From Candidatus Heimdallarchaeota archaeon (GTDB lineage Archaea > Asgardarchaeota > Heimdallarchaeia > JABLTI01), in NCBI GenBank assembly GCA_030614005.1, contig JAUWKS010000021.1:19345-51344 (forward strand): a DNA stretch of 32,000 nucleotides. Reading direction: 5' to 3'. Under the pieces are notes generated by a model. That model was given only the letters and a program-made list of their open reading frames with translations, did not search any database and was not told the DNA's origin. Position numbers and translations under genes: made by a program. This document shows positions 14,229-32,000 of the stretch, piece by piece. Each line of letters starts with the position of its first letter. Positions within the stretch are counted from its first letter, which is position 1.

Positions 14229-17200
14229 TTAGCCTTCTAGTTCAGCTGAAGTTTTTAGTGCTCTAATTATTTGTTTTCTGATGTTTTTCACTGTCTTTAC
14301 ACCTAAACCTTTGACGGTTGATGTTTTTGCTATTTTTGCACTATGGAATTGTTTTACAGTATAAATTCCTGCTTTGTTCAGCTCTTCTTGCACCATTGGT
14401 GAAACGTGAGGTAATACTGCTACAGAAAGCATTTTTCGCATTTCAATGATATCTTCCTCTTTTACTCCTTTTACTGAACCCAATCTAGCGATACTTTTCT
14501 TGAAAATATCCCCTACAGATTTTACGCCCACCTTTGCTAATCGTTCTTCTGTTGTTTTGCCCATACCAGGAATTTTACTAATTCTAAGCGTAGGTTCTAG
14601 CATTCCTTTCGGTGGTCCTCTTACAATTTTAGTGGTTTCTTCAGCTTCTGCTTTTGGCTTCTTTGTGCCTAGAAATTCAGCTATAGAAGTATCTTTCTTC
14701 TCTGGTGATTTTGCTGGTTTTTTGGTTTTTGCAGATTTTTTAGCAGGTGGTTTTTCTTTAGTTGGTGCTACTTTTGTTGGTTTCTTGGCAGGTTTTTTCT
14801 TTTTCCTAGAAGGTACGGTCTTTGAACCTGGTGTCATCAGCAGTTTTTCTTCAATATCTAATTTCAATTTTGTAATCGTTAGTGAGCGTAATCCTCTTGC
14901 ATTTGTTAAACTATCATCATCTGCTTCGAAAAATTGTTGAACAGTAAATATACCCATTAGATTCAAATCACTTTTTCCTTCAAAATTAATTCTTGGCAAC
15001 ACTATAACATCTGTATTCCCACGATTGTCAGCTATTGTTTTTGCTCCGAGGCCTTTAATCTTTAGTAAGCGACTGTTGGCAACCATATAGAATTTGGCTA
15101 CTGTTTCAATACCTTTAGCTGATAATCTCGCAGCCATCGTTTTTCCTACACCACCCAATTCTTCAACTTCAGCATCTGCTTCAAGGAAGTCCGGAGGTGG
15201 AGTGGGCATTTTGACCTTAGTGGGTTGAGTGATAATGCCTTCATCATCCATTGATTCATCAATTTCTATTTCAGAGCTTTCTTCTCTAAGATTTTCAATA
15301 TCTAAATCAAGTAATGCTTTGATCAATTCAAATAAGATAGTAACCCGTTCTTCTGATAAGCCATGCAATTTGCTTAGCTCTTCTTCATCTGCTTCAAGAA
15401 ATTCAAGTATACTATAGACTTTGTTACTATGCAATTCCTCCACAGTTTTTTGAGTAATATTTGGTAAAACATCAACATTACATTTGGATTTTAGTTCAGC
15501 TATTATAACAATATTCAAACTGCTTTTGGTAAGTTCCTCATTTTCCATTAAGAAGAAATCTTTAATTGTTTTAACACCACGAGCACGAAGTGATTTCTGA
15601 GTTGCCGGACCAACACCAGGGAGAGTTGTCACTGAATCCATTCCTTCGTAAAGGTCCATACCATCAATTATTCCTCTATCTCGAGCAAATTCATCCAGTG
15701 CTTTAGCACTCACAGATTCAACCAATTCATCTTTTGCTAGCTCAGGTAACTCAAGAATAGCAACTAGAATTTGTTCTGCTTGATCTAATGCTTCTTCAGA
15801 TAATCCAAGAGAAATTAATTCTTGCATTTGTTCATCATCGATTAAAATGAGGTCTTGCAGAGTCTGAATATCGTATCTATCAAGATTAACACCCTCAATT
15901 GAATCTATAGGTAGAGCTTCAACTGGGATGGGGTTCTTTGGGAGAAAAATCGAACCATCTCTTTGTTTTAAACAATTACTAAATTGTGTGGAACTGAACA
16001 TAAATGGAAATTCATCTTCATCCATTTTTCCAAGCATTTGTCCAACAATTGATGAAACAGTAGGGGCGTATTTATCAAAGATTTTCATTCTTCTAGCTGC
16101 TTGTTCTTTTTTCTTCAAAGCTCTTTGGAAACTCATTAGTTTCCTTCCGGCTTTTTGTAAACATAACCTAAGTTCTCTTCTAATCTCATCTACTTCAGCA
16201 ATATATTCCTTGCTTGTTTCAGGGAAGGGTATTTTTGTACTAACTAATGACACGGCAAATATTATTGGATCATTATTGAGATTGGTTTTATAGTTGGACC
16301 AATTAATACCCTCAATTGTTTTCTTTATCAAATCATTTCCTTCACCAAATAGTAAAGGTATTCTGTTTGCAAAACGCATTAATTTGTATGGTGCACTAAT
16401 GTTTTCTCCACCATATCCTATAGCAACTTCAACCTGAAAAGCATGTCCACTGTAGCTTGAAGGTGGTCTGCCTTCTGAACAGCTGAATTCGGGTTGGTAA
16501 ACATCTTCCAAACCGGCTGCTAAATTTTCATGCCCTAATGGTGACAAACATTTACCATCGGGTGGGAAAAATTTAACCTTGGTAAATCCTTCATGAATTA
16601 ATCTTCGAAGCTCCATTTCATCTAAATTCAGGGGGTTTTTACTTGCCTTAATTTTAGATACTTTTAGAACTTGGGCTGCAGTTTTATCACCGATTCTCTG
16701 AAAATGGGTTTTCAAAAAATTCTTCATATCTTTACATTTTGTTCTAGAAATCTCGCTTTTTATTTGATTAATATCTGTACCAATTGGATGCAGTGGTACT
16801 TCAATTGGTGGTTCAGGAATTTCATCAACAGTTCTAGTATGAAAGATAGGTTCATCGGGATTGTCAGGAGTAGTAATAGTGAATGAAGCATATGGTGTTA
16901 TAACAGCCATTTCTTCTAAGTATTCAAAGATATATCTTTTGGAGCGTCTCCAAGTGCCTGCAAAACAACAAGTAACTTCTGTTCCATGTACTTTTAGTTG
17001 GTTCTTTGATTTACCAGAATATTTTGTTGAATCAACGATTTCAGGAGCGTTCTTAACAATATCAATAAACAATTTGTAATGACTGGTAAATTCAGCTGAT
17101 TTTTTCTTAGAAAGAGCTAATCGTGATTTAATTTCAAATGGAACTCGAATAGTTGATTGAGAATAAATTAAAACCATTTTTGCTCCTAAGCCGAAGCGAC

Positions 17201-17570
17201 CGCGTGATTGTCGTTCTCCATAATTGGAACCAGTAAGTACTCTTCCAAATAATTTTGGAATGTCAGCATGACGAATGCCAATTCCATTATCTCGTACAGA
17301 CAATCGAATGAATTCATTACCAGATTCCTCGTCGTGTCTGTAATCTTCAATACCCATTAACTCGCCGATTTCTTCTGCAGACATCAATTCGATTAGAATA
17401 TTGATATCAGGTAGAATTCCCCCTTTTTCAGCAGCATCTAATGCATTTTCGACTAGTTCTCTTATGCTTGTATAAGTAGATCTGGTAGGATTATCAAATC
17501 CTGCAATTGCTTTATTTGCTTCAAAGAATTCTGCAGCAGACCTTTCTATTATTTTCTCACGCGCTATCAT
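14229..17570 (-). CDS. top6B: DNA topoisomerase VI subunit B with a long C-terminal HhH-repeat extension
   Basis: GHKL motifs RELVENALDA, VRDNGIGI, SRGRFGLGAK and HGTEV; H2TH (FQRIGDKTA); transducer RFANRIPL. About 570 extra aa carry repeated GxG-type HhH motifs. Confidence 0.96.
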   Translation of the reverse strand: MIAREKIIERSAAEFFEANKAIAGFDNPTRSTYTSIRELVENALDAAEKGGILPDINILIELMSAEEIGELMGIEDYRHDEESGNEFIRLSVRDNGIGIRHADIPKLFGRVLTGSNYGERQSRGRFGLGAKMVLIYSQSTIRVPFEIKSRLALSKKKSAEFTSHYKLFIDIVKNAPEIVDSTKYSGKSKNQLKVHGTEVTCCFAGTWRRSKRYIFEYLEEMAVITPYASFTITTPDNPDEPIFHTRTVDEIPEPPIEVPLHPIGTDINQIKSEISRTKCKDMKNFLKTHFQRIGDKTAAQVLKVSKIKASKNPLNLDEMELRRLIHEGFTKVKFFPPDGKCLSPLGHENLAAGLEDVYQPEFSCSEGRPPSSYSGHAFQVEVAIGYGGENISAPYKLMRFANRIPLLFGEGNDLIKKTIEGINWSNYKTNLNNDPIIFAVSLVSTKIPFPETSKEYIAEVDEIRRELRLCLQKAGRKLMSFQRALKKKEQAARRMKIFDKYAPTVSSIVGQMLGKMDEDEFPFMFSSTQFSNCLKQRDGSIFLPKNPIPVEALPIDSIEGVNLDRYDIQTLQDLILIDDEQMQELISLGLSEEALDQAEQILVAILELPELAKDELVESVSAKALDEFARDRGIIDGMDLYEGMDSVTTLPGVGPATQKSLRARGVKTIKDFFLMENEELTKSSLNIVIIAELKSKCNVDVLPNITQKTVEELHSNKVYSILEFLEADEEELSKLHGLSEERVTILFELIKALLDLDIENLREESSEIEIDESMDDEGIITQPTKVKMPTPPPDFLEADAEVEELGGVGKTMAARLSAKGIETVAKFYMVANSRLLKIKGLGAKTIADNRGNTDVIVLPRINFEGKSDLNLMGIFTVQQFFEADDDSLTNARGLRSLTITKLKLDIEEKLLMTPGSKTVPSRKKKKPAKKPTKVAPTKEKPPAKKSAKTKKPAKSPEKKDTSIAEFLGTKKPKAEAEETTKIVRGPPKGMLEPTLRISKIPGMGKTTEERLAKVGVKSVGDIFKKSIARLGSVKGVKEEDIIEMRKMLSVAVLPHVSPMVQEELNKAGIYTVKQFHSAKIAKTSTVKGLGVKTVKNIRKQIIRALKTSAELEG

Positions 17571-17607: not shown

Positions 17608-17877
17608 AAGGACAAGCTTGACACTATGTCCTTCTCTACATCCACCCGGGAATCCCTTCCACCTAGGGATTATTTTCTTATTTCAGATGCCTCTGAAAGA
17701 GTGAATTAAGAGCGAGTTTTGATTCAAATACTAAATTTAATTTCTTAAACTTATTGCTGTTGAATCCGCTCAAATTTCGTCCTTCATTATTTCACTTTCT
17801 CATTTCAAAGGGTTCTTTAATACTTTACCGTTCAAGCAAATTATCTTAATAACATTCAATTGTTAAACTACAATTGA
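17608..17877 (-). ncRNA. Candidate structured RNA downstream of the RAMP operon
   Basis: Five stems: 17608-14/17627-33, 17651-57/17665-71, 17681-87/17692-98, 17710-27/17760-71 (bulged) and 17856-63/17870-77. GC is 31/60 in 17611-17670. Strand and transcription are inferred. Confidence 0.35.
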
Positions 17878-17887
17878 TATACTCTGC

Positions 17888-18904
17888 CTATGTTCCGAGC
17901 CTTCTCTTCTTCGAGGTGGTTGCCCTCTCAGAGTCAGCATTGCTCATGGTCAAAGAAGAATGCATCTCAGCATCCATAGCAGTATCAAGTTCTTCTCTTT
18001 TACTTGCCGATAGTGAGATAGTTCCTTTTGATATTTTTAATCTTTTCTTATAGTAATCATTTATTGCCAGATTTACCATTAGCAACAAATGGTTTCTTAA
18101 ACTACTAATTCCATAATCCATTGATTCCACTATTCGCTCTAATTCTTTTGAATGATAGATGTAATTATATAATCTATATGGAGAATGTTGAACTTGCTCA
18201 AGGTCTTGTTTTAAAAGTTTGAAATCTATTTCTCCATTCTCCCGATTATATCGACTTGGAACTTTGAATCGCTTCTTTCTACTGATTGAAGATGCAAGTC
18301 TATCGTAATACTGCAAAATTGGCAAGAGAGCATTTGTATGTTCTGCACCATTATGATGATTCACACAAGCAGTTCTAATTTCTTCATCTTCGATTTGTAA
18401 CTCTTGATAGATTTTACTTGGATGTCGCTCTGTATGAACGAAATCGTGAAGCATTAATACTTTAAGTAATTTTAACAATTTTTCAGGATAATTTACCCCT
18501 AATCCTTTCCTAATTTTGAATTCCTTTCTTTGGTTCGCTTTCGTATGAATAAAGGACTCAATTTTACATTCAAGCCATTTCACTCGACCGAAACCTTCAG
18601 AGGAATAACTGCCAAGAAAACGATTGGTCATAAAGGAAGAAATTTTGGTAAGAAGCTTCTCTGTATTATACCCTACACAGCTCACTTGCACAAATCCTCG
18701 ATAGGCATGTAAAACGGTCGGTGCTCTTGATTCCCCTTTCACCAATTTGCTAAAGGAAGTCAATAGTGGTTTTTTTTCTCCGTTACGATCTCCTATTACC
18801 TTTATCCAACAAGCTCCTTTCTTCACGAGTGGTTTGGAAAGGATGATTGGTGTATCTAAGCGACCAATTAATGTAACCTTTTTCTTTAATTGTGGTTCTG
18901 CCAA
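17888..18904 (-). CDS. RAMP (Cas5-like) domain fused to a Cas10-type HD nuclease fragment
   Basis: N-terminal ~120 aa end in a RAMP glycine-rich loop (FLGSYSSEGFGRV). HD motifs follow (LMLHDF...VNHH...YYDRLASS), then SSLRNHLLLMVNLA, which resembles the Cas10/Cmr2 'SL-x-DH' segment. No palm or GGDD. The TTG start overlaps the cas7 stop. Confidence 0.75.
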   Translation of the reverse strand: MAEPQLKKKVTLIGRLDTPIILSKPLVKKGACWIKVIGDRNGEKKPLLTSFSKLVKGESRAPTVLHAYRGFVQVSCVGYNTEKLLTKISSFMTNRFLGSYSSEGFGRVKWLECKIESFIHTKANQRKEFKIRKGLGVNYPEKLLKLLKVLMLHDFVHTERHPSKIYQELQIEDEEIRTACVNHHNGAEHTNALLPILQYYDRLASSISRKKRFKVPSRYNRENGEIDFKLLKQDLEQVQHSPYRLYNYIYHSKELERIVESMDYGISSLRNHLLLMVNLAINDYYKKRLKISKGTISLSASKREELDTAMDAEMHSSLTMSNADSERATTSKKRRLGT

Positions 18905-19830
18905 GCCTTTCTCACCTTGCTTAATTCTTCGTTCAAGTTCTCCGCTCTTTCTTCCTCAATGATAGCGATTTTTCCATTACCATTCTCTTGTCCCAACTTT
19001 CTCTCAAAAACAACCCTTTCAAAAGAAATGTCTCTCATCTCAAGACGACCATACCCGCTTTTTCCGCCTCTTCCTAAATGAGTTATTCCGAAAATTCCTT
19101 TTACGAGTAATCCTAGCAACCATTGCGGTAATTCTTTAGAGAATTCCACATAGAATTGAAACTCTCCGGAGAAATATTGTTCAGAGAAATCCTGAAGTGG
19201 TTTTTTGTCTCTTCTGGATGAGTGGCGATTCTCTGTTGAAATATACACAAATGAAAGACCGGTTTGTTTGGTTATTTTGTCCAATGGTTTGTCTGTCTGA
19301 ATGATAGCATCGCTCCAGACTCTAATAGGGGATTCTTCACCTAACATTCCGAATAATTGTCTAATGGCACAAGGATTTTCTCCACAAGCACCCATGAGAT
19401 GTTCGTGTTCAAGAAGAGTCGATTTACCAGTTCCTTGAAATCTTTCCTTTAAAGTTGGAGAACAATAATCAATTCCTTTCTGGTGAAGAATATTCATTAT
19501 ACTATGACGAATAGCACCACGTATTCCTTTAACCACTCGAGAGACTCCTTTATCATCTTTGAGGATTGTTAGTTGGACTTTCGCATCAGCTTTTTTCCCT
19601 TCTGCTTTTACTCGCAAATCATTGAAATCATCAAAGATACTATCTTTGTTTTGTCTCAAGAAATCCTCTAATTCTGCTACTTTAACATTGGTCTTTCCAA
19701 TATATTGGTAGGGTATTTCTCCTCCTCTCATCAAGTAAGAGCTTTTTCCACTACTACTATTCAGTGGTTTCGCCCACCACGCTTGAACTTTTACTGATAT
19801 TCTGTTGAACTCGTTTTTCATAATAATCAT
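18886..19830 (-). CDS. cas7: Cas7-group RAMP protein (Csm3/Cmr4-like)
   Basis: KGIRGAIRH (the 'SSLKGALR' helix), ACGENPCAIRQLFG (Zn-binding C..C..LFG), thumb region ENRHSSRRDK, and G-loop HLGRGGKSGYGRL. Confidence 0.86.
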   Translation of the reverse strand: MIIMKNEFNRISVKVQAWWAKPLNSSSGKSSYLMRGGEIPYQYIGKTNVKVAELEDFLRQNKDSIFDDFNDLRVKAEGKKADAKVQLTILKDDKGVSRVVKGIRGAIRHSIMNILHQKGIDYCSPTLKERFQGTGKSTLLEHEHLMGACGENPCAIRQLFGMLGEESPIRVWSDAIIQTDKPLDKITKQTGLSFVYISTENRHSSRRDKKPLQDFSEQYFSGEFQFYVEFSKELPQWLLGLLVKGIFGITHLGRGGKSGYGRLEMRDISFERVVFERKLGQENGNGKIAIIEEERAENLNEELSKVRKAWQNHN

Positions 19831-19920
19831 TCCGTATATACAAAAATATATACAAAAGATAACATATAAACGTACCTAATAAGCAGCTTTTAATAATATA
19901 TAAGTCAATAATTTATTATT
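19831..19920. promoter_or_regulatory. Divergent promoter region between cas7 and abrB with an 11-bp tandem repeat
   Basis: 90-bp AT-rich spacer with TATATACAAAA at 19835-19845 and 19847-19857, plus TATA-like TATATAAG near 19897. Confidence 0.45.
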
Positions 19921-20106
19921 ATGAACAAAGATCAAGATTCAGAAACCTTTCTGAAGAAAAAATACAAACTTACTAAAGTAGGAAATTCATTCAAAATAAC
20001 TTTACCAGTTGATTTTGTGAAAGGATTTGGGTTTGAAGAAGGGGAAGATCTAACAATAGCAATTGATATTGCAAATAAACGTTTTATTATAACTAAAGAG
20101 GAGTAA
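19921..20106 (+). CDS. AbrB/MazE/SpoVT-family DNA-binding protein
   Basis: 61 aa, KLTKVGNSFKITLPVDFVKGFGFEEGEDLTIAID, the typical swapped-hairpin pattern; ends 2 nt before the next gene. Confidence 0.82.
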   Translation: MNKDQDSETFLKKKYKLTKVGNSFKITLPVDFVKGFGFEEGEDLTIAIDIANKRFIITKEE

Positions 20107-20108
20107 TT

Positions 20109-21302
20109 ATGTCTATTGACAATATTTTAGGACAGATTAAACTAGCGGAAGAAAATCTCTTCGAAGAAGATCGACATAAAAGACAAGAGGCAATTCATAC
20201 ATTTCCTCGAATTTTAAATGCTAGAAATTATACAGTAAGAGAAGCATTGAGAGTAAAAGGACTAATTAAACCAATTATCCCAAAACTTATTGAGATAATG
20301 AAAACTGATGCTGATATTGGTTTACGCAAAATTGCTGCAAAATCTTTAGGTGATATGCCAATCTATGATGGTATCTACAAAGAGTTGCTTGAGATTTTTA
20401 AGCTTGGAGAGATGGAGAATGAATTAAGTTGGGCGGTAGGTGAGAAATTATTTAATTTTCCAGATTCTTATCTTGATATCAAAGAAATACTTCTTGAGAT
20501 GCTACAATCGAATAACCATAATCATAGAATACTAGGTTTAGCAATGATTCGAAAATATCGGGAAAGCTCAGGTCGTTCAGGAAACGAATATCTAGGTTCT
20601 GTTTCAAGAATTCAACTTGAGAAGGATTGGTTACTAATTCTCCGTAATTTAGTCCGAGAGGCTAAAACTGAAGAAGATGCTCAACCTGCCTATGTTACTC
20701 TTGAAAAAATCTCTCCCGATAAATCAGCTGAACGAAAATTATTCCAGAAGGAATTATTATACAAAGTTATGTATGAAATTCTTGTCAAAATCCAACCTGA
20801 AATCCAAGTGCAGTTAACTAGAATTATGGAATTAACAACTCCTCTAATACAAGAACATGGTAAAATCCCCAAAAGAGCTGAATTAACTAACCTTGATTAT
20901 ACCAAAGAACTCCATGAGGCGACAATAAAGGAACTTGTTCAAAACGAAGATATCAAAGGAGAGTATTTTGAATTGGAGCAAGTTTTTGTCAAAAAAGGCA
21001 AAGAAATAAAGTTTTCCTTGACTTCATCCAAAATTGCTAAGAAATATTTGTGCAACAATTGTGGTTCCTCTATTAAGCATGAGGATCAAACTTGTTCAAC
21101 CTGTAAAGAAGAAATCCTCAAATGTAATGTTTGCAAACTGCCAATTTCCTTTGGAGAAGAAATAGGTATATGTAAACATTGTAAATCTAAGTCTCATTTG
21201 AGCCATCTTCAAGAATGGGTGAAAATAAAGGGAAAATGCCCCACTTGTCAAAAAAAGTTGCAGTCGGAAGAGATTATAACACTTTCTAAGAACTCAAACT
21301 AA
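20109..21302 (+). CDS. HEAT-repeat protein with C-terminal zinc ribbon and RING-like domain
   Basis: HEAT-like units (DADIGLRKIAAKSLGDM, NHNHRILGLAMIRK), then CNNC...CSTC and CNVCKLPI...CKHC...HLSH..EW...CPTC. Confidence 0.75.
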   Translation: MSIDNILGQIKLAEENLFEEDRHKRQEAIHTFPRILNARNYTVREALRVKGLIKPIIPKLIEIMKTDADIGLRKIAAKSLGDMPIYDGIYKELLEIFKLGEMENELSWAVGEKLFNFPDSYLDIKEILLEMLQSNNHNHRILGLAMIRKYRESSGRSGNEYLGSVSRIQLEKDWLLILRNLVREAKTEEDAQPAYVTLEKISPDKSAERKLFQKELLYKVMYEILVKIQPEIQVQLTRIMELTTPLIQEHGKIPKRAELTNLDYTKELHEATIKELVQNEDIKGEYFELEQVFVKKGKEIKFSLTSSKIAKKYLCNNCGSSIKHEDQTCSTCKEEILKCNVCKLPISFGEEIGICKHCKSKSHLSHLQEWVKIKGKCPTCQKKLQSEEIITLSKNSN

Positions 21303-21365
21303 GGGGCACTTAAGTAAGGAAAAAATTAGTACAATACTGATATTAACCTGTAAGAGAGAATAATT

Positions 21366-22937
21366 TTGCTAAAGCCACTTTCTTGGACAAATGACCCATT
21401 ATTATTTGATAGTGAACCTTCTCCAGTTAATAAGTGGATAAATGCTAATGAGCTTATTCAACAGAACCGGAGTAAAGAGATTTTTCTCCCAGAAAGTCAA
21501 CAGTTACATCTCTATCCTATAATGGTTCGTAGGAATGATTTTGTTCGGTTGAAATCTTCTGACCGAATCATGGCTCGATTTCCATTCATGGAAATTAGCG
21601 AGGAAAGTCAAGAACGAATCATGGATAAGATCCTTCTTCTCTCTGAATTAACTCGAGACTACTTTTACAAATCTATCAATAAATCAATTCTTCAATGGAA
21701 AGAGGACATTCTAAGATATCTAAAGCGAGGAGCAATTCCTTATCCAATAGTAAGGAGTTTCTTCGAATTAGAACCAAGTTTTTTTTCTATGTATAATAAG
21801 ACCTCTCTTCACTTCACAAGTGCTCGTGGAGAAGAGTTCAAGATGCCGACCACATTAACGAAAGAGCTTGCCTATCTTGCGGGGATGGTCAATGGTGATG
21901 GTAACTTGCAAAAATATACTCTACGAATCGTCGACTTTTCCATTACGAATATCAAGCAGCTCCAAAAGATGTTCCAGGATTATTTCGCACAAACAGGGAA
22001 CATTCTCTTTAAAACACCCAACAGTCCGGAAGTAGTGATAACGAATCTCTGGGTGGTAAGGTTATTCTCATTCTTAACAGGACAACCAATTGTAATGAAG
22101 AAGTATGCCCATCTAGGTGAACCATTGATCTTCAAACAAGAGCTTTATCGTTCCTATTACTGGTCTGGAGTGATGGATGCAGATGGGAGTTACAGGAATA
22201 GGAATGTTAAATTTGTAAGTGCTTCTATAAAGTACGTAAAAGATTTCAAAAAATTTCTTTTTGAAAATAAAATAGACTCTAAATTGACTGAGAGAGAGGA
22301 TAATACAGTTATCTTGTACATCCCAGCTAGATTCTATACACAGTTATCGAAATTGTTGACTTGTTTACACCCAGAAAAGAAACACGAGTTTAATAAATTG
22401 AAAATAACTCCCTATCGCTCAGCAACTTTTTTTGCGGGATTCAAAAAATCAACTCTAGTCAATGGTTATTTCAATTTCAGACTTATAGGTAATCTAAGTG
22501 TAGCTAATTTAGGAGACACAATTCGTCAATTCCGAGGAAAACAATCAAGAAAAGCTTTTATCGAAAAAGTATCTATTAGTGAAAGAGCATTACAAAATAT
22601 AGAAAAAGGGAAAATGAGTATAAACATTCTGCTTTTAGATGAAATATTAAAACAAAGAAACCAACTGCTGATGTCTTTTCTCTCTCAACAAGAAGCAAGT
22701 CTTTATCACATTCGAAGTTCAACACCTGTGAAACTCGCTACACAACCGAACACACAGCTCGCATCTCTACTGAAATCATTACTCTTTTACAAGAAATGTC
22801 TCAAAATTCCGAATAGTAGCGATAAACTTGCTAAAGAACTAAAAGCTTATTTTCAAGTAACTATAAAAAACAATCAAATAACCAACAAATTACTTTTACT
22901 ATTCTTTTCTACTTTTTGTGAGACAAAACTTTTCTAA
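21366..22937 (+). CDS. Free-standing double-LAGLIDADG endonuclease-like protein with an XRE-type HTH
   Basis: LAYLAGMVNGDG and YWSGVMDADGS motifs; HTH segment LGDTIRQFRG..SRKAFIEKVSISERALQNIEKG; no intein splice-junction motifs seen. Confidence 0.85.
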   Translation: MLKPLSWTNDPLLFDSEPSPVNKWINANELIQQNRSKEIFLPESQQLHLYPIMVRRNDFVRLKSSDRIMARFPFMEISEESQERIMDKILLLSELTRDYFYKSINKSILQWKEDILRYLKRGAIPYPIVRSFFELEPSFFSMYNKTSLHFTSARGEEFKMPTTLTKELAYLAGMVNGDGNLQKYTLRIVDFSITNIKQLQKMFQDYFAQTGNILFKTPNSPEVVITNLWVVRLFSFLTGQPIVMKKYAHLGEPLIFKQELYRSYYWSGVMDADGSYRNRNVKFVSASIKYVKDFKKFLFENKIDSKLTEREDNTVILYIPARFYTQLSKLLTCLHPEKKHEFNKLKITPYRSATFFAGFKKSTLVNGYFNFRLIGNLSVANLGDTIRQFRGKQSRKAFIEKVSISERALQNIEKGKMSINILLLDEILKQRNQLLMSFLSQQEASLYHIRSSTPVKLATQPNTQLASLLKSLLFYKKCLKIPNSSDKLAKELKAYFQVTIKNNQITNKLLLLFFSTFCETKLF

Positions 22938-23025
22938 AATTCTGATAAAATATTAGAAAAAATAGGAATAAACTGAACTTCAAATTTACCTAATGTACAA
23001 GAGGGGTATTTCGAGGCATTTTTGG

Positions 23026-23057
23026 GCTTTAAAATGACTTTCTTGCTGTTTTAAAGC
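23026..23057. repeat. 9-bp perfect inverted repeat (possible operator or hairpin)
   Basis: GCTTTAAAA (23026-34), a 14-nt spacer, then TTTTAAAGC (23049-57). Confidence 0.5.
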
Positions 23058-23088
23058 ACTTAGAATCGACCTTTGATTTATGCTTTCA

Positions 23089-23192
23089 GACTTTTTTGCG
23101 AGAAGTGGTTTTTTCTCATATTCTAGTTATTCCTCGGTAAGTTTTATGATTTTTTTGTGAGTAATCTGTGAGCTTTTTGGACTTTTTTGTGA
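23089..23192 (+). repeat. Three copies of the 13-bp motif GAYTTTTTTGYGA
   Basis: GACTTTTTTGCGA at 23089-23101, GATTTTTTTGTGA at 23148-23160 and GACTTTTTTGTGA at 23180-23192, upstream of the wHTH-cas1 operon. Confidence 0.7.
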
Positions 23193-23242
23193 TTTAGTAC
23201 TTTAAATGGTAATTTTGTCAAGTAAATGAACAAGGGATATTT

Positions 23243-23983
23243 ATGTCGATTCATGATCCATTGATTCTAAAAACAAGTTCGAAGTATTCATTACCTGAAT
23301 TTAACTCTAAGGTTAAATTCACTTCTGTAATGGAAGAAGTGCTGTACACACTCTTAACTTTCTTCATCCTAAGTGGTGAATCAAAATTTACAAATGTGGT
23401 GAATGATTTGATAGGTGTACTTGATCGTTCCCAAAATGCTATTGGCTCTGCCTTAAAATCTCTTGAACAGTTGGAGCTACTAGCTTATTATCGAGATGGT
23501 AGATTTAGAACCGTCGAACTACATCTAGAAAATGATTTCCTGAAAAGCGTTACTGCAAGATTCTTTGGAATAACTGATTTTACGAGTATGAAATGCAAGA
23601 AATTGAAGCAAATGCTCTTTGGTTTTTATCCAATACTTGATTTTGAGCGAACCATGACAATGTTTCAAAACGAAACTGAGCGTTTGGTTTTGTTGGTGGA
23701 TGATTACCAACACTTGTTTGATTGGGTTAATAAAATTGAGGAATTGGAAAGATTAGCGAAAATTACTCACTCTACTGATGATACTGTTGATGACAATCCA
23801 ATTTTATTATTTATCGATAAAATTGTATGTGCGATAAAATATAAAAAAATGCAACAAACTGCTGATCTAACATTTCAAGAATTATCTGAAATCGTTAATG
23901 AGATTGTTTCAGAATTTCAAAAAATTCCTCCTTGGTCAAATGATGCTGTAAGTGGAAGGTGTAATATTTGGACTCACATATAG
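23243..23983 (+). CDS. Winged-HTH domain protein
   Basis: FTNVVNDLIGVLDRSQNAIGSALKSLEQLELLAYYRDGRFRTVEL wHTH pattern with a helical C-terminus; overlaps the next gene by 16 nt. Confidence 0.68.
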   Translation: MSIHDPLILKTSSKYSLPEFNSKVKFTSVMEEVLYTLLTFFILSGESKFTNVVNDLIGVLDRSQNAIGSALKSLEQLELLAYYRDGRFRTVELHLENDFLKSVTARFFGITDFTSMKCKKLKQMLFGFYPILDFERTMTMFQNETERLVLLVDDYQHLFDWVNKIEELERLAKITHSTDDTVDDNPILLFIDKIVCAIKYKKMQQTADLTFQELSEIVNEIVSEFQKIPPWSNDAVSGRCNIWTHI

Positions 23984-25986
23984 GAGGATTTGTTGTGAGT
24001 TATACAAAAAACGAGCTCAGAGAACGAATTTTCTCACTTTTCACTCAGGATGAGATCGGCATGGTTGGTCTCTCTAACAGAGAAGTTTCAGAACTAATTG
24101 GCAAGGAATCGAAGGATACCAATCAAGTATTGAAGGGATTAGCTGATGCTGGCAGGTTATCACGCAAGAAGATTAAACGTGGTGTTGATCCAAAAGTTTT
24201 CGTTTACTTTTCACCATCTTTTGAAGTAATTGATGAAGCTCCCGAAAGGCTTTGTAATAACTGCCAAAGACTATCTGGTTTAGAGAAATGTATTTTGCTT
24301 AGATTAGTAAAAGAAACAGCTGCTTGGGCTTTACGTGATGACTTAAAAGCACGTGCAAATGCAATTAGTTTGTTAGGTGTTGAAGGTTGTGACTTTCATG
24401 ATCCTAGACAAAAAGGTCAGTGTAAGTGTAAAACGATGAAGGATTTTCTCAACACTAATACTGATCCTGTTACCTTTGAAGTTCGTTGCCCTATAGATCG
24501 ATGCCGTGAAGTCATTGATGAGCTCAGTATTTCTCTAGAAAAAAAGAACATAGGTGCGAACACTTTGTATTGTCCTCATTGTGGTTCTCCTATCAATTTC
24601 ACCTTCAACCATAGTTTAGGGAGATACAATGTTCAATACTATGATAGTCGTTTTGATATTATGCAACGAGATTATAAACTGATCACAGGTATGGATCTTG
24701 AGAGTAGGTATGTTTCAGATCGTTCCCATGGTTTTTCTCTTGTAAAAGAAGAGAGTTTTCATCTTGATTTAGAGAATAATGAAACTATCTATATTGGAAA
24801 TGAATTAACCCCTACTGAGTTTATAGATTCAAAAGATCTTGCTTATTTTTCTTTGAATCAATTGGATTACATAGCGGTAAAGGATGCTGATGATTATCTC
24901 TATCTAAGAGACAAATTGCATGAAATTGATCCTGCGACAAATAAATCTCTCTATTATAATATTGAGCTTTTACACTCAAGTAAACCAATTGAGAGTACAG
25001 AACCGTCATTAAAGGAAATCGGTGGTAATGAGATTCTAATCGCAACAGGAGCAATATTCTTTCCGATGTTTTTCTCCAATATTCTTGACCGGAGAGCAGT
25101 TCTTAAAAAGAAAATGGTTGATATGACAGATACTGAATTTCGAAGTGATTTCAAAAGCGCTCTAGCACGTTTTGATAGGAATATCAAGAAATATCGCACT
25201 CCTTGGAACATTTCCTCTCGAGAATGGCAACAGAATGAAGGTGGTTTTGCTAGCCTAATGGACACTCCATTCAAACAAGAAGCTGAGAAATATGGATTCG
25301 AGAATCTTTCGAGAGAGAAATCTAGGATGGTCCGAGGGGAACCTTTCATGCATTATGGATTATTCACTGCTCGAGCACCTAAAGCGAGTTTTGAAAATGG
25401 TGTGAATAAAGTAACTGATAGATACATTAAGGAAAAAATCTATAATGATCTTTCTGTTCCGTGGAATGATTTGCGAGGATGGTGCCATAGAAAATACTCC
25501 TTTGGTTTGTTTCTGGATTATATTGAACCACCTAGAGCAGTTGCACCATTATGGATAAATGAAGCTATTAGAAATAAAGAGATCACTCCGAATGATTTTA
25601 AGATAGAGCGAGGAAAAAGGTTTGAGAAATTCTATTATATTAAACCTAATTCTCATGCACACGAAGTTGTGAAACGAGTAAGCAATCAAATTCTCTGCAC
25701 AAGATTTACTCTTACTACTGGCTCGGAGCTTACAATGAAACAGATGATAGAGAAATCTGTTACTCAATTAAAACAACTCTTAAATCGACTTTCTAACTCT
25801 ACTGTTGAATTATTTACAGAAAACAGAATAAATGGTCCTGTAAAGACCATCTGGAAGAAACTACAAGAAACAAACAACAAGAACTACTTGACTGCCAAAG
25901 AATATCAAATGTTACAAAAACATGTTCAACATTTCTTCCGAGAAGAATTTTCTTTTGAACCTTATACAATTGCTGAGATTCAGTAG
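23968..25986 (+). CDS. cas1: Highly diverged Cas1-family integrase with N-terminal wHTH and Cys-rich Zn-binding region
   Basis: C-terminal half has QNEGGFA (Glu codon 25237-39) and RGWCHRKYSFGLFLDYIEPPR. His (25486-88), Asp at +10 and Glu at +13 match the E. coli Cas1 H208/D218/D221 spacing. N-terminus has a wHTH and CNNC, CDFH, CKC, CPIDRC and CPHC motifs. Confidence 0.8.
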   Translation: MDSHIGGFVVSYTKNELRERIFSLFTQDEIGMVGLSNREVSELIGKESKDTNQVLKGLADAGRLSRKKIKRGVDPKVFVYFSPSFEVIDEAPERLCNNCQRLSGLEKCILLRLVKETAAWALRDDLKARANAISLLGVEGCDFHDPRQKGQCKCKTMKDFLNTNTDPVTFEVRCPIDRCREVIDELSISLEKKNIGANTLYCPHCGSPINFTFNHSLGRYNVQYYDSRFDIMQRDYKLITGMDLESRYVSDRSHGFSLVKEESFHLDLENNETIYIGNELTPTEFIDSKDLAYFSLNQLDYIAVKDADDYLYLRDKLHEIDPATNKSLYYNIELLHSSKPIESTEPSLKEIGGNEILIATGAIFFPMFFSNILDRRAVLKKKMVDMTDTEFRSDFKSALARFDRNIKKYRTPWNISSREWQQNEGGFASLMDTPFKQEAEKYGFENLSREKSRMVRGEPFMHYGLFTARAPKASFENGVNKVTDRYIKEKIYNDLSVPWNDLRGWCHRKYSFGLFLDYIEPPRAVAPLWINEAIRNKEITPNDFKIERGKRFEKFYYIKPNSHAHEVVKRVSNQILCTRFTLTTGSELTMKQMIEKSVTQLKQLLNRLSNSTVELFTENRINGPVKTIWKKLQETNNKNYLTAKEYQMLQKHVQHFFREEFSFEPYTIAEIQ

Positions 25987-25998
25987 GATGATGAGAAA

Positions 25999-26685
25999 AT
26001 GACAAAAAAACATGCAACCATAACAATATATGATTCTCTAAGAGATTTGAATAGAGTTATTGCTCTTATACTGGTAGATGGTGATTCAAGAATTCGAATA
26101 ATGGAAAATAGGCTCAACTATAGATCTGTTTTACACAAAGTTGTTTCTAAAGGATTCATTCGTACACATGAGATAGTTACTAATTGGCTAATAGAATTAT
26201 TTGAAAATGGGGAAACAACTTCTCTAACGTTTCATGAGATAATGGATAAACTACCTTGGTCCTGGGATACGACTCGAGAGTACTTTGATTCTTTAGAAGA
26301 AGAAGGTATTGTACAATATTCACGTGATTCTCAAGGAAGAAAAATTTGCACCTTAACAATTGAAAGTGAGTCTAGAGCAAAGCAGATAGATAATTTGCTC
26401 AAGTTTTCTAAAAGAAATGAAACACACTCACTAAATACTATTTCAGAAGCAAGAAAGGAATTTGCCAAGTATAATACAAAATTGAATGAATGGTTTTGTA
26501 TGAACTATAAAATGAATGATCTGAGTTCTCAGATTAAGCAAGCCCCATTATCTACAGTTGAAAAATTCATCGAGACTATAACCAAAATAATCAATATATC
26601 CAAAGAAGAAGATCTAAGATTGAATCTATTAGACTTTTTGAAGCAATACCCATTATTGCTATATTCAATAAGGAAGGTTGAGTAG
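25999..26685 (+). CDS. Winged-HTH domain protein
   Basis: SLTFHEIMDKLPWSWDTTREYFDSLEEEGIVQYSRDSQGRKICTL wHTH pattern; operonic spacing (12 nt upstream, 2 nt downstream). Confidence 0.68.
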   Translation: MTKKHATITIYDSLRDLNRVIALILVDGDSRIRIMENRLNYRSVLHKVVSKGFIRTHEIVTNWLIELFENGETTSLTFHEIMDKLPWSWDTTREYFDSLEEEGIVQYSRDSQGRKICTLTIESESRAKQIDNLLKFSKRNETHSLNTISEARKEFAKYNTKLNEWFCMNYKMNDLSSQIKQAPLSTVEKFIETITKIINISKEEDLRLNLLDFLKQYPLLLYSIRKVE

Positions 26686-26687
26686 AT

Positions 26688-27452
26688 TTGGTAGTCAGGG
26701 AGTACGAATTAAATCTTAGTGCAACAGAATTTCTATATTTTCTAGATTGCCCCCAGAAATTCAGAATTTATCGTATCCTTAATCCTTTACCATACAAAGA
26801 AAATTTCTTGAGTAGTAGAAGGTCATTATCTTCTTACAAAATGCGAGGATACCAGGGAAAGAAGAGTGATGGTATCGATTATCATAATTTCTTTGAAACA
26901 TTTCATAGAAAGTATGCAAATGTAATCAGTCAAACAATACCCCCAGATGAAGTATGCAAGGACAATGTAAAATTACTTTACTGGACTGAACAACAGAAAA
27001 ACTACTTTACAGCAAAAGAGGATTGTTACTGGTATCCAATTGATAAAGAAATTCGATTAATGACTGAAAAGAAAAGAGGGGTGATAGATTGTATAGAATT
27101 ATGTGAAAAAAGGAATGGTTTTAGGATTATAGATTATAAACCAACATTTGATTCCAATGATCATCTTCTATTGCTGTTTTATGCAAGTTTATTCAACGAA
27201 TATCGCTTAGAGAATAAAGATGAAGGAGAATATGATTTTGATGTTTTGGAGGTTGGTTGTTATTATTATGAAATGGGTGTAAGAAAGGTCTATAATTTGA
27301 AAGAAGTAAACATTTTAGCATTTGAAAGAATTTTTGTTAAGTCATTGGAAAAAATTCTTAATAATGAATTCTTTTTAGATAAAAGCTCTTGTTGGGGTTG
27401 TATTTTCATACGTATCTGTAAGATAGAAAAGAGTAGAGAATATAGATCTTGA
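26688..27452 (+). CDS. cas4: Cas4-like PD-(D/E)xK nuclease with Fe-S ligands
   Basis: N-terminal CPQKF plus C-terminal CWGCIFIRIC give four Cys; GIDYH; E.RL...RGVID; IIDYK. The QxxxY motif is degenerate (LLLFY). Confidence 0.85.
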   Translation: MVVREYELNLSATEFLYFLDCPQKFRIYRILNPLPYKENFLSSRRSLSSYKMRGYQGKKSDGIDYHNFFETFHRKYANVISQTIPPDEVCKDNVKLLYWTEQQKNYFTAKEDCYWYPIDKEIRLMTEKKRGVIDCIELCEKRNGFRIIDYKPTFDSNDHLLLLFYASLFNEYRLENKDEGEYDFDVLEVGCYYYEMGVRKVYNLKEVNILAFERIFVKSLEKILNNEFFLDKSSCWGCIFIRICKIEKSREYRS

Positions 27453-27505
27453 ATATTTAATAACAAGAAAACAACCACAAAAAAATAGATTTATAAAAAG
27501 TCAAA

Positions 27506-28100
27506 CTATTTCTTGATTTCTTCAATAATTGGCACTATACCTTCCAATGGCATATTTTGTAAACAGTTTGGACATGTACCTTGTGTTTTCACCTACTCTT
27601 GTAGATGTTTCAGATGGCTCTTTGCTTCACATAAAGAGCATTTACCAATTTCTTCAGCAAAGGAGATTGGAAGTTTGCATACAGAGCATGTAAGTATTTC
27701 CTTTTGGCAGCTGGAGCATTTTTTCGAAGCAAAATTATCAATAATATTTCCACAAGAATTACAAGAATATATTCTAATGGTTGAAATTGGCTTTTTAATT
27801 AAATCTTGAATAATGCCATCAGTTTTCTCTTTCTTAATGAAAACTTGTTCATATGGTTTATACTCACCTAATTCAGGTTTTTCTTCAAGAATTTCCTTGA
27901 TTAGCTCTTCAACGATTTCCTTTGGAACAGAAGATAATTCAACGATACGAGGTAAGAGCATAGGAATATTAGGAGTAACCTTCAAAAGAATATCTAAGAT
28001 TATTTTATAACTAATTTGTTTTTTCTTTTGTTTTATTGCTTCATAGTATGGATAAGCAAATTTTTCAACATCAGAATAACCTTTTTTCACAGCGAATGTA
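27506..28100 (-). pseudogene. Zinc-ribbon/RING protein remnant with in-frame TAG and missing 5' end
   Basis: Homologous to the C-terminal ~180 aa of 20109-21302. TAG at 27593-95 replaces the Trp of HLQEW, and the frame continues VKTQGTCPNCLQNM...KK to a stop at 27506-08. The annotated start region (28101-28162) is antisense to the FG-GAP gene. Confidence 0.8.
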
Positions 28101-28847
28101 ATTATTGCAGATTTATATAACGACGGTGAAATAGAGATAATTTTCGGTTCTGAAAATAGCAATATAATCTGTCTAAACAGTCAAGGGAAAAAACAATGGT
28201 CATATAGTACAGATGATTGGATATTTTCTTCACCGGCAATATATGATTTAGATAAAGATGGCTATAAGGAAATTTTAATCGGTTCTTATGATAAAAACAT
28301 CTACTGTTTAAATTATGATGGTTCTTTGTCTTGGAAATTTGCCACTGATAATCTAATTTTCTCCTCTCCCTCTGTTACTGATTTAGAGAATGATGGATTT
28401 ATGGAAATTCTTTGTGGTTCTGATGACAATTATCTTTATTGTTTGGATTATTTGGGTAAAGAAATTTGGTCGTATAAAACAGATAATATGATTTTTTCCA
28501 GCCCTTTAATTGCTGATATTAATAATGATGATTTGTCGGAAATAATCATCTGTTCTACAGACAATTTCGTTTATTCCTTATCTCTAACAGGTGTTTCTCA
28601 ATCAGGGGATAACCCTTGGTATTGTTTCAGAGGTTCTATTCTCCATACCGGGTGGATGGATTCTGACAATGATTTCATAGATGATCTAACTGAAAGCTAT
28701 CTTAGTGATCCCGATTATCCTCTTACGAACAACATCTTCCCCTCATTTGACTTGTCAAATAAGAACTCAATAATAGTAGTAACTCTGGTATCCATAACAC
28801 TAATATATATACTTCGAACGAAGAGAAAAAGAAAACGCTTCGTTTAA
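28101..28847 (+). pseudogene. FG-GAP/VCBS-like beta-propeller surface protein, 5'-truncated
   Basis: The frame is open from 28080 with no start until 28326. Four repeats: ADLYNDGEIEIIFGS, YDLDKDGYKEILIGS, TDLENDGFMEILCGS and ADINNDDLSEIIICS. It has a W.CFRG...HTG motif and a C-terminal TM plus KRKRK, but no signal peptide. Confidence 0.78.
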
Positions 28848-28871
28848 TAACATCAATTAATACTTGCTTGC

Positions 28872-28937
28872 AGCGACACCGATGTACCAAAAAGGTTAAT
28901 GTTCCTCAAAACATAACTTGAACATCGGTACGTCGCT
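28872..28937. other. Long imperfect intergenic stem-loop
   Basis: AGCGAC/ACCGATGT (28872-85) pairs with ACATCGGT-ac-GTCGCT (28922-37); an inner stem GTT(A)ATGTT/AACATAAC is also present. Confidence 0.6.
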
Positions 28938-29019
28938 CATTTTCTATCTTTTTATAGTTTGAATTACACTTCTTAGCAAGTTTGAAAGCATTAATCATTG
29001 AAATTTGAGGAACATTAAC

Positions 29020-29376
29020 ATGATACAAGCTATAGAAATTGTGAAGGATCCTGAAGAAGAAGCACTCTTACAGGAAGCTCTTCGCGAAAGAGAAATGGAT
29101 CTATGTAACTCCTTGATTCTCTCCTATAGACAAGCTATTACAAGCTCTAAAGTCTATTTCCGGCAAGAAGAATGTCTTATCAATGTTGTAAAAGAGAAAA
29201 TCAATTTCTATTTTCCAACAAATGCGTGGATAAAAGTGGACTATATCATACGATATAATTTCCGCTCAGTTCAAAAAAAATCCACCATAGACAGAACACT
29301 TACCAGATGTGAACTTGAGGAAATATTTAGTTTCCTATGTATGAGTGAACTTATCGACTATTTCGGTCGAACTTGA
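29020..29376 (+). CDS. Hypothetical protein
   Basis: ORF with a GAGG RBS-like site 9 nt before the ATG at 29020; no recognisable motif. Confidence 0.55.
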   Translation: MIQAIEIVKDPEEEALLQEALREREMDLCNSLILSYRQAITSSKVYFRQEECLINVVKEKINFYFPTNAWIKVDYIIRYNFRSVQKKSTIDRTLTRCELEEIFSFLCMSELIDYFGRT

Positions 29377-29665
29377 GTTCATTCTTCCCTTTCTTTTTTT
29401 ATAGCGATAAAAATCATGTTAATACAAAAAAATTTCAATAACAAAAAATGCTTTCATACTCCCAATTCTAAGTGTCCATTTCTTAATATTTAACCTTTCA
29501 AGTGAAGCAAAACAAGGAATAGGAAAAATGTCAAACACATGACTTTTGTCCCCCGACACAAACAGTTTTTTTGGGAAATGGTTAAATAATATCATCAGTT
29601 TCGTAATTCTGATTACTTTTCTCTGGAGAGAGAGAAAATCTAAGAAAGAAAAAGGATGTATTATT

Positions 29666-31309: not shown

Positions 31310-31384
31310 ACAAATTTTAATTGTAAAATGAGTATATAACTATCATATACTCGTTCTACAATAACATATTGGAGGAAAATTATA

Positions 31385-31987: not shown

Positions 31988-32000
31988 TTTTTCTTCTACA

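Follow-up and report, generated by a model that had tools for sequence, protein, structure and literature searches.

ARAMP systems are array-less derivatives of type III CRISPR-Cas systems that, in the parts of the published classifications devoted to them, are mostly accompanied by a distinct Cas1 protein (PMC8730458; PMC12669027). A separate study infers that the aCas1-TnpB loci of these archaea (Asgard archaea; groups Cas1H-Asgard-1 and Cas1H-Asgard-2) represent transposons in which Cas1 serves as the transposase (PMC10691335). Here we analyse a related block of genes located at positions 17846-27456 of a 32-kb stretch of DNA from a Candidatus Heimdallarchaeota archaeon. This stretch, hereafter called the window, constitutes the last 32 kb of contig C67 in a genome assembly of 3.62 Mb (126 contigs, 90% complete). 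The block combines an operon for a divergent Cas1 with genes for a Cas7-like RAMP protein and for a Cas5-like RAMP protein that carries an HD domain (Cas5-HD). CRISPR immunity is believed to have acquired its Cas1 from a transposon, and no loci come closer to an intermediate or an offshoot of this event than array-less ones with Cas1 and RAMP genes. We know of no locus pairing Cas1 with RAMP effectors without an array that has been tested in the laboratory, and a literature search found no later experimental paper on aCas1.

As a kind, the system is not new: it fits the ARAMP and aCas1 groups, which have been catalogued computationally. An initial annotation of the window had cautioned that the locus might belong to a class of Asgard variants reported by Makarova et al. 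in 2020, and the descriptions of ARAMP bear this caution out (PMC8730458; PMC12669027). What is added here is the interchange of genes in one slot of the locus, a control region, the exact ends of the unit, and both an empty and a second insertion site.

Results and Discussion

The block is an insertion into a conserved neighbourhood

The left flank of the block carries the housekeeping genes aIF5B, top6A and top6B, the last of these with a long helix-hairpin-helix tail. In six genomes of the same genus, top6B directly adjoins a segment of 5.5 kb (A), after which comes a segment of about 10 kb (B). This uninterrupted order provides the empty site beside top6B for which the initial annotation had proposed to search in close relatives. 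In the window genome, the 9.6-kb block at 17846-27456 interrupts the ancestral order. Here top6B adjoins the block at 17843-17846, and segments A and B are contiguous on contig C4, where the intergenic region between them aligns with that of the relatives. The junction of top6B with the block is bridged by contigs from four sequencing runs of two studies.

A second insertion site is provided by the sister genome G081, which is the closest relative (top6B is 94% identical). In this genome top6B and segment A are still joined, and a 1.7-kb remnant of the block resides between segments A and B. The remnant corresponds, at 75-90% identity, to window positions 17846-18541, to an inverted copy of 18657-19029, and to 26794-27456. 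Homology between the two genomes begins at 17846 at both insertion sites and ends at 27456. The left end of the unit (17846-17887, minus strand) is therefore a 42-nucleotide (nt) tail past the stop codon of the Cas5-HD gene, with a GCAGAG box and a small hairpin (17858-17875 on the plus strand), and the right end (27453-27456) extends 4 nt beyond the Cas4 stop codon. Both the GCAGAG box after the stop and the hairpin, which covaries, recur behind four paralogous Cas5-HD genes and in the G081 remnant.

Comparison of the window and G081 junctions indicates that sister lineages carry a unit with the same ends at different sites, which are separated by 5.5 kb, and that the unit has decayed at one of these sites. 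The block in its entirety is inserted into surroundings that are otherwise conserved. An 8-mer (TTAATAAC) that stands at 17846 and again at 27457 was also considered as a junction feature; it is unmatched at the G081 insertion and probably reflects chance.

RAMP genes and tnpB alternate beside a constant Cas1 core

Approximately 27 homologous loci from genomes and metagenomes were compared, 18 of which could be assessed for the genes that accompany the Cas1 operon. The order of the Cas1 core is constant in about 20 loci: a gene for a LAGLIDADG endonuclease with a helix-turn-helix (HTH) domain is followed by a winged HTH (wHTH) gene, Cas1, a second wHTH gene and Cas4. These loci belong essentially to one genus and come from the window genome, from eight of ten other same-genus genomes, and from metagenomes. 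A Cas1 profile likewise matches eight of those ten genomes and has hardly any other match in the phylum, for which 399 genomes were searched, and relatives of this Cas1 number only 45 proteins among 1.84 billion representatives. The window genome itself encodes four such Cas1 proteins, five Cas4 proteins and about 13 LAGLIDADG-HTH proteins (with the RAMP pairs, 25-69% identity), and two more of its loci (C9:121.8-134.2 kb and C122) carry the whole set.

The position divergent from the LAGLIDADG gene is occupied in different ways. Among the 18 assessable loci, this slot holds an AbrB gene with the RAMP pair in eight, TnpB (confirmed by Pfam) in six, a pair encoding proteins of 721 and 227 amino acids (aa) in two, and other genes in the remaining two. 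Because TnpB is found at only about 19 places in 3.6 Mb, which corresponds to a chance adjacency of about 2% per locus, its position next to the Cas1 core is far from what chance would give. The RAMP pair is thus an exchangeable module, one of three alternative occupants of one slot. That a RAMP-HD effector and TnpB are alternatives at one position suggests a common role.

The initial annotation had called for a survey of how often the RAMP pair co-occurs with this Cas1. The two are linked in 8 of the 18 loci, which come from several genomes and include three separate loci in the window genome. Neither rare co-occurrence, nor folds other than those expected of Cas1 and RAMP proteins, nor an array elsewhere in the assembly was encountered. 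Since the core is also found with other occupants of the slot, and since RAMP pairs with AbrB stand alone, without Cas1, three or four times in the survey, the two modules are linked often but not obligatorily. Not all of the genes between the RAMP and Cas1 operons are bystanders. No gene accompanies the Cas1 operon more constantly than the one for LAGLIDADG-HTH, and the RAMP pair always has AbrB as its divergent neighbour. Both genes belong to the system, and only the putative HEAT/zinc-ribbon gene is facultative.

Several features of individual loci were recorded in the course of this survey. The 721-aa protein, its 227-aa partner and a 69-aa HTH protein, none of which matches a Pfam family, occupy the slot at L005:4144-7008 and L020:4748-6700. 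At L007:13444-19393 and L008:12622-18628, a type I restriction-modification (R-M) operon comprising HsdM, HsdS, HsdR and a YgjP-like gene follows directly after Cas4. A conserved palindrome (ACGTTTGTATACAAACG) and then ATGTCAT lie directly behind the stop codon of tnpB genes that adjoin Cas1 cores (L011:4200-4263, L029:15877-15940 and L016:4900-4961), and this may be the end of the TnpB guide-RNA scaffold. Finally, contig C9 of the window genome holds a different element of 11 kb (140915-152055; L040:3916-15056 in the survey) with genes for TnpB, LAGLIDADG-HTH, a helicase and a Cas1-like protein of 1392 aa. This element does not occur on the window contig. At its borders stands a perfect 18-bp inverted repeat, which is found at about 20 places, mostly at contig ends.

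The RAMP module encodes a Cas7-like protein and a Cas5-HD fusion

All nine open reading frames (ORFs) of the initial annotation were confirmed at their coordinates, and the RAMP and Cas1 operons do lie 3.4 kb apart, as it stated. Its calls of Cas7-like, RAMP-HD, Cas1-like, Cas4-like, AbrB and LAGLIDADG proteins are each backed by a profile, a motif or a fold.

The Cas5-HD gene (17888-18904, minus strand) encodes a protein of 338 aa that has no Pfam match. Its assignment draws on an AlphaFold model (predicted local distance difference test score, pLDDT, of 78.5), on structural comparison with VIA-align, and on invariant motifs. RAMP chains from Csm, Csf, Cmr and type VII complexes align with residues 7-124 (Z 7.8-6.0). 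The N-terminal HD domain of Csm1/Cas10 aligns with residues 140-320 (6ifk_A, Z 8.2; 6mua_A, Z 7.5), and all of these Z values are in the range that the tool terms middling. A Foldseek search with the model returned nothing at E 0.001 or better, and its top matches, at E 2.4e-3 or weaker, were all RAMP subunits; the PADLOC profile Cas5_IIId gave 0.048. Residues H153, D154, H161, H183, H184 and D201, which form LHD, H, NHH and D motifs, are invariant, as is a G-rich loop. Because, besides these middling Z values, nearly all top matches are CRISPR RAMPs and the motifs are invariant, we predict a fusion of a Cas5-like RAMP fold (about residues 1-120) with an apparently active HD nuclease of Cas10 type (about residues 140-300). 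Genomes of the genus also contain many isolated stretches (L071-L084) that match only the last 70-130 residues of Cas5-HD and have no other genes of the locus nearby. Such stretches represent either copies that have decayed or a small independent protein that shares this helical region.

The neighbouring gene (18886-19830, minus strand), whose stop codon overlaps the Cas5-HD start, encodes a Cas7-like (Csm3-like) RAMP protein of 314 aa. It is matched by the Pfam profile RAMPs (28.3 bits versus a cut-off of 22.1) and by PADLOC Csm3 (2.9e-7), and a profile built from 11 of its homologues matches the type VII Cas7 in PDB at 0.0016. A KGxRG motif, a C/H/C/C cluster and a C-terminal G-rich loop are invariant. 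Divergent from this gene lies that of a small AbrB/SpoVT-type regulator (19921-20106, plus strand; Pfam MazE_antitoxin, 28.0 bits versus 24.7), and homologues of 58-62 aa (cluster c7) are found divergent from Cas7 in eight other loci. The window genome contains seven Cas7/Cas5-HD pairs in total.

A model of the Cas7/Cas5-HD complex, in which contact is made via the RAMP domain, scored 0.68, compared with 0.00 for the best of three controls. This passes a mark attained by 58 of 80 solved complexes and by 2 of 110 mismatched pairs (rough counts; custom alignments were used). Model runs had at least 71% of contacts in common, with a partner pLDDT of at least 69. Solved Cas7-Cas5 complexes exist, and therefore the pass may reflect likeness to these rather than binding. 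The model supports, but does not show, binding between Cas7 and Cas5-HD through the RAMP domain.

The Cas1 core retains its catalytic residues

The Cas1 gene (23968-25986, plus strand) encodes a fusion of a wHTH domain, a zinc domain with seven cysteines and a Cas1 domain, as in the 'aCas1' proteins of Asgard archaea. The ORF spans 672 aa, and translation probably starts at 23995 (GVG) to yield the 663 aa of the database copy P0001. The Pfam Cas1 profile (PF01867) has no match in this protein at E 0.1, nor anywhere in the genome, and PADLOC Cas1 matches the C-terminus at 5.5e-5 through only the last 85 profile positions. The AlphaFold model (pLDDT 69.8) predicts an N-terminal winged helix. When this model was compared with PDB by Foldseek, all 50 of the 50 best matches were Cas1 or casposase, over about 370-430 columns (6opm_A, 1.4e-7; 4n06_B, 1.1e-6). 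Across 16 homologues, with identities as low as 22%, residues H507, D517 and E520 do not vary, and their spacing (10 and 13) equals that of H208, D218 and D221 in Escherichia coli Cas1. Position E423 is Glu throughout apart from Asp in two far paralogues, and the seven cysteines are invariant. By its two-domain fold and catalytic tetrad, the window protein is a Cas1, albeit one that is very divergent from array-linked Cas1 proteins.

The core is led by the gene for a single-chain LAGLIDADG endonuclease with a C-terminal HTH domain (21366-22937, plus strand; 523 aa), which was assigned by Pfam LAGLIDADG_3 (26.1 bits versus 22.5). Both catalytic Asp motifs (GDG and DxDG) are retained by all of 14 homologues, whose identity falls as low as 27%, and the protein is therefore probably an active single-chain nuclease. 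The first wHTH protein (a; 23243-23983, plus strand) has weak matches to HTH domains of ArsR/MarR type, and its gene is directly 5' of Cas1 in 13 loci. The second (b; 25999-26685, plus strand), encoded between Cas1 and Cas4 in 20 loci, has a wHTH region of Csa3 and Lrp type (3e-4 and 2e-4). The last gene (26688-27452, plus strand), also conserved in 20 loci, encodes a Cas4-like PD-(D/E)xK nuclease (Pfam PDDEXK_1, 38.9 bits versus 22) whose four-Cys cluster consists of one N-terminal Cys and a C-terminal CxxCx5C motif. When PDB chains were searched with the sequences of Cas1, Cas4 and LAGLIDADG, nothing useful was returned. The facultative gene that precedes the core (20109-21302, plus strand) encodes an accessory protein whose C-terminus carries a double zinc ribbon or a RING-like domain, for which only sub-threshold zinc-ribbon/RING matches were obtained. 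It has many paralogues in the window genome and is present in only three loci of the set.

A conserved non-coding region precedes the Cas1 operon

In most loci, the LAGLIDADG gene and the first wHTH gene are separated by about 300 nt. An alignment of eight loci reveals that the corresponding 305 nt of the window (22938-23242, plus strand) are conserved. A 24-nt invariant motif (22993-23016, plus strand) occurs once per locus and once in the window genome, and a diverged copy is present at a paralogue of 40% identity. Conservation begins sharply at this motif and ends at the Cas4 stop codon (12 loci were compared for this end). Between the motif and the operon, the eight-locus alignment reveals three locus-specific direct repeats of about 20 nt (23083-23102, 23142-23161 and 23173-23193, plus strand) and a TATA-like box (23201-23207, plus strand) about 35 nt before the start codon. 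The variable positions of the repeats differ among loci and agree inside one locus. From this pattern, the three repeats are read as operator-like sites for the wHTH proteins of their own locus.

The possibility that the repeats at 23083-23193 form a mini-array was rejected because their spacing is irregular (59 and 31 nt), because they abut the TATA-like box, and because the stretch between repeats varies among close loci by point mutation and not by replacement. A micro-ORF beginning at the 24-nt motif was also rejected: its wobble positions are invariant, and its start codon is lost in the paralogue of 40% identity.

A 1835-nt contig of a closely related strain, from an independent study, matches the window only to position 23001 and then diverges; by this weak hint, the Cas1 operon may be exchangeable as a sub-cassette. 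In run X5 there is no cover of 23340-28008, and one weak joint connects 22268 to 28503 with only 21 letters on its shorter side.

Canonical CRISPR-Cas components and a guide RNA are not detected

The initial annotation had remarked that the window lacks an array, cas2, cas6, a Cas10 palm domain, Cas3 and PolB, and this was borne out. No CRISPR array was found in the window or, by two scans, in the 90%-complete assembly. Genome-wide profile searches yielded no Cas2 (PF09827), Cas6 or Csm1, and no Cas3 above the cut-off. A Cas10 Palm/cyclase domain was not seen, the only resemblance to Cas10 being the HD domain that is similar to its N-terminus, and no ORF scanned in the block or its flanks contains a family B polymerase domain.

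These absences bear on the idea that the block consists of leftovers of an ordinary CRISPR-Cas system whose array and other cas genes lie elsewhere or are unassembled. Arrays are often lost from metagenome-derived assemblies, and the completeness of 90% and division into 126 contigs leave room for such a loss. For this reason, the genome-wide absence of an array is strong evidence short of proof. Against this idea, not only the array but also Cas2, Cas6, Cas10 and any Cas3 above the cut-off are missing from the assembly. Gene order and catalytic residues are intact in about 20 loci, none of which has an array nearby, and the Cas1 protein, with no match to PF01867, is far from all array-linked Cas1 proteins. 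We therefore find an origin from such leftovers hardly credible.

No RNA partner for the RAMP proteins was found by an Rfam scan, by folding of the intergenic region, or by a search for repeats near solo RAMP pairs. Specifically, no Rfam family was matched in the window, the consensus fold of the 305-nt region is weak (-5.8 kcal/mol, with little covariation), and the search near solo pairs found no repeats. Profile scans of the block likewise detected no domains of TnsB, TnsC or TniQ type.

The initial annotation had proposed that a Cas7/Cas5 filament with a non-array RNA directs the Cas1 integrase, resulting in RNA-guided integration in the manner of a CRISPR-associated transposon (CAST). The co-location of the RAMP pair and the Cas1 core in eight loci is consistent with this proposal, as are the presence of TnpB, a proven RNA-guided family, in the same slot elsewhere and the conserved hairpin directly behind Cas5-HD at the edge of the unit. 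However, the Cas1 core is found without the RAMP pair in 10 of the 18 loci, RAMP pairs are found without Cas1, and the conserved non-coding motif travels with the Cas1 side and not with the RAMP side. Moreover, cleavage has been lost in CAST effectors (PMC8730458), unlike in the RAMP partner, whose HD nuclease is apparently active. Neither a guide RNA, an array or transposon ends nor TniQ, TnsC or another Tns-like adaptor was seen. Because the RAMP pair can be exchanged for TnpB or for the 721-aa/227-aa pair and also stands alone, obligatory coupling of this kind is unlikely, and we judge RNA-guided integration by Cas1 to be very improbable overall.

Integrative cassette or fixed defence locus

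We hypothesized that the block is an integrative, relocatable cassette, and we consider the chances of this to be about even. The hypothesis is favoured by an intact Cas1 tetrad with no array to serve, by the equivalence of the RAMP pair to TnpB, by an insertion polymorphism with common ends, and by the published inference for sister loci. The block comprises a constant module, consisting of the LAGLIDADG-HTH endonuclease, the control region and the operon for wHTH, wHTH-Zn-Cas1, wHTH and Cas4, and an exchangeable module consisting of AbrB, the Cas7-like protein and the Cas5-like RAMP fused to a Cas10-type HD domain. Cas1 would join the DNA into the chromosome, Cas4 would process the ends, and the LAGLIDADG enzyme would cut site-specifically. 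The wHTH proteins would control the operon through the three repeats before it. The Cas7/Cas5-HD complex would be a nucleic-acid-targeting nuclease, the counterpart of TnpB in sister cassettes, and targeted cutting by this complex might favour retention of the cassette or exclude competing DNA.

A more specific proposal is that the cassette is self-contained, lacks inverted ends and is moved by its Cas1-Cas4-LAGLIDADG core, and that the Cas7/Cas5-HD pair near its edge is a class 1 counterpart of TnpB acting as an RNA-guided homing or retention nuclease. Its RNA would derive from the conserved hairpin and flank immediately after Cas5-HD or from the conserved 24-nt region. In this full form, we view the proposal as improbable.

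A number of observations weigh against a relocatable cassette. The block has no credible end-to-end terminal inverted repeat, there is no target-site duplication at either insertion junction (in the window genome or in G081), and the 18-bp inverted repeat of the Cas1/TnpB element on contig C9 is absent from the window contig. The lack of an RNA partner noted above likewise counts against this reading. Copies within the genome are old, with protein identities of 25-50%, and give no sign of recent transposition, and the retention of a Snf7 neighbour in three genomes resembles vertical descent; the flanks of these Snf7-adjacent loci map to different contigs of the window genome. The type I R-M genes after Cas4 in two loci indicate a defence-island context. 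Moreover, the two sites 5.5 kb apart could stem from recombination in a variable hotspot rather than from the enzymes of the cassette. To the right of 27456 lies unrelated multi-copy DNA, including an 87% copy at the end of contig C9, and on these grounds the region is regarded as a hotspot of variable DNA.

Alternatively, the block may be a fixed chromosomal system for non-adaptive defence, located in a variable island, in which Cas7/Cas5-HD would sense or cut the nucleic acid of invaders. LAGLIDADG, Cas4 and Cas1 would then be further nucleases or processors of DNA ends, and the block would move passively by recombination or horizontal transfer. The presence of several nucleases with intact sites and of regulators typical of toxin-antitoxin and defence systems (AbrB and wHTH) is consistent with such a function. 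As with defence genes, there are many diverged paralogues per genome and decay is frequent. Genes for type I R-M, Schlafen/AlbA_2 and CHAT-TPR proteins adjoin homologous loci, RAMP pairs also stand alone, transposon ends are absent, and a 2025 classification places ARAMP among CRISPR-like systems with nucleases (PMC12669027). Against a fixed defence function, every homologue, even at 22% identity, has preserved the full Cas1 tetrad in spite of there being no array to integrate into. TnpB, a transposon-associated nuclease, replaces the RAMP pair, and a unit with the same ends is present at two sites in sister genomes. Weighing these points, we regard fixed defence as a serious but doubtful possibility.

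The locus offers several handles for experiments: the ends of the unit, the empty and second sites, the 24-nt element, the operator-like repeats, and a compact two-protein RAMP-HD effector that is supported by modelling. If Cas1 does integrate DNA without Cas2 or an array, or if the two-subunit RAMP-HD effector is programmable, the locus would be relevant to the evolution of CRISPR systems and to tool building; if neither holds, it is one more accessory island of Heimdall archaea. A self-contained mobile cassette with an RNA-guided class 1 counterpart of TnpB would be a living link that connects CRISPR effector modules to Cas1 transposons.

Other features of the window

The multi-copy DNA on the right includes 29423-32000, which holds ORFs of 587 and 200 aa at the contig end. 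Their 87% copy spans 166906-169486 of contig C9, where it is again terminal, and contig C24 has a copy of 68%. The last 150 nt or so of the window recur at several contig starts in the window genome and in G081, and this multi-copy element breaks the assembly. Nearer to the block, contigs from two studies (three runs) have 13 nt in place of a 555-nt stretch (28867-29423). The stretch contains an ORF (29005-29376) and a perfect 16-nt inverted repeat (28895-28910 and 29004-29019), and this insertion/deletion polymorphism is possibly a small mobile insert.

On the left, top6B (14229-17570) encodes a topoisomerase VI B subunit of 1113 aa, in which helix-hairpin-helix repeats make up a C-terminal extension of about 600 aa. 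Contig C71 carries another, short paralogue of top6B (36-38% identity), and each of the 11 genomes of the genus has both forms. Further upstream, 2133-3254 encodes a homologue of the presenilin-family membrane proteases (Pfam Presenilin, 63 bits), a type of homologue that is typical of Asgard genomes.

Comparison with known systems

The block is reminiscent of a CAST in that CRISPR effector genes lie beside an enzyme that integrates DNA. It differs from CASTs in that the integrase is Cas1 rather than TnsB, in that TnsC/TniQ, an array and Tn7-type ends are absent, and in that the effector keeps its nuclease. Similarities to the effectors of type III, type IV and type VII systems include the RAMP folds, an HD domain like that at the N-terminus of Cas10/Csm1, and a Cas7 whose nearest relative by profile is the type VII Cas7. 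In contrast with these effectors, the window pair has two subunits only, and is found without a Cas10 Palm/cyclase domain, Cas11, Cas6 or an array.

Like the block, the HRAMP systems of Haloarchaea, in the passages that describe them, are array-less and combine Cas5 and Cas7 homologues with associated nucleases (PMC8730458). They belong to another phylum, and those passages describe no Cas1 for HRAMP. The nuclease of the window system is an HD domain fused to the Cas5-like protein. Casposons (Cas1-solo group 2) share with the block a Cas1-family integrase without an array or Cas2. The best structural match of the window Cas1 is the casposase 6opm, and the block, like a casposon, is an insertion. 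It nevertheless lacks the family B polymerase, terminal inverted repeats and target-site duplication of casposons, and its Cas1 has extra wHTH and zinc domains.

The likeness to aCas1-TnpB loci is evident from the six loci in which Cas1 cores homologous to that of the window (22-68% identity) lie beside TnpB. The window block differs in having no tnpB, with the Cas7/Cas5-HD pair in its place, and in having no flanking repeats. The GTTCACTCA motif, which has been reported downstream of tnpB, occurs at chance level in the window and is absent behind the tnpB genes of the surveyed loci.

Features shared with ARAMP, as these systems are described (PMC8730458; PMC12669027), are an Asgard host, the absence of an array, and highly diverged Cas7 and Cas5 proteins that are nearest to type III. 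Among the features that could be compared, the block shows no difference from ARAMP. The named relatives of the window proteins come from 'Asgard group archaeon' and 'Candidatus Heimdallarchaeota archaeon', which agrees with the host of ARAMP. Both also have a distinct Cas1 and accompanying nucleases that include a PD-(D/E)xK enzyme, to which the window system adds HD and LAGLIDADG nucleases.

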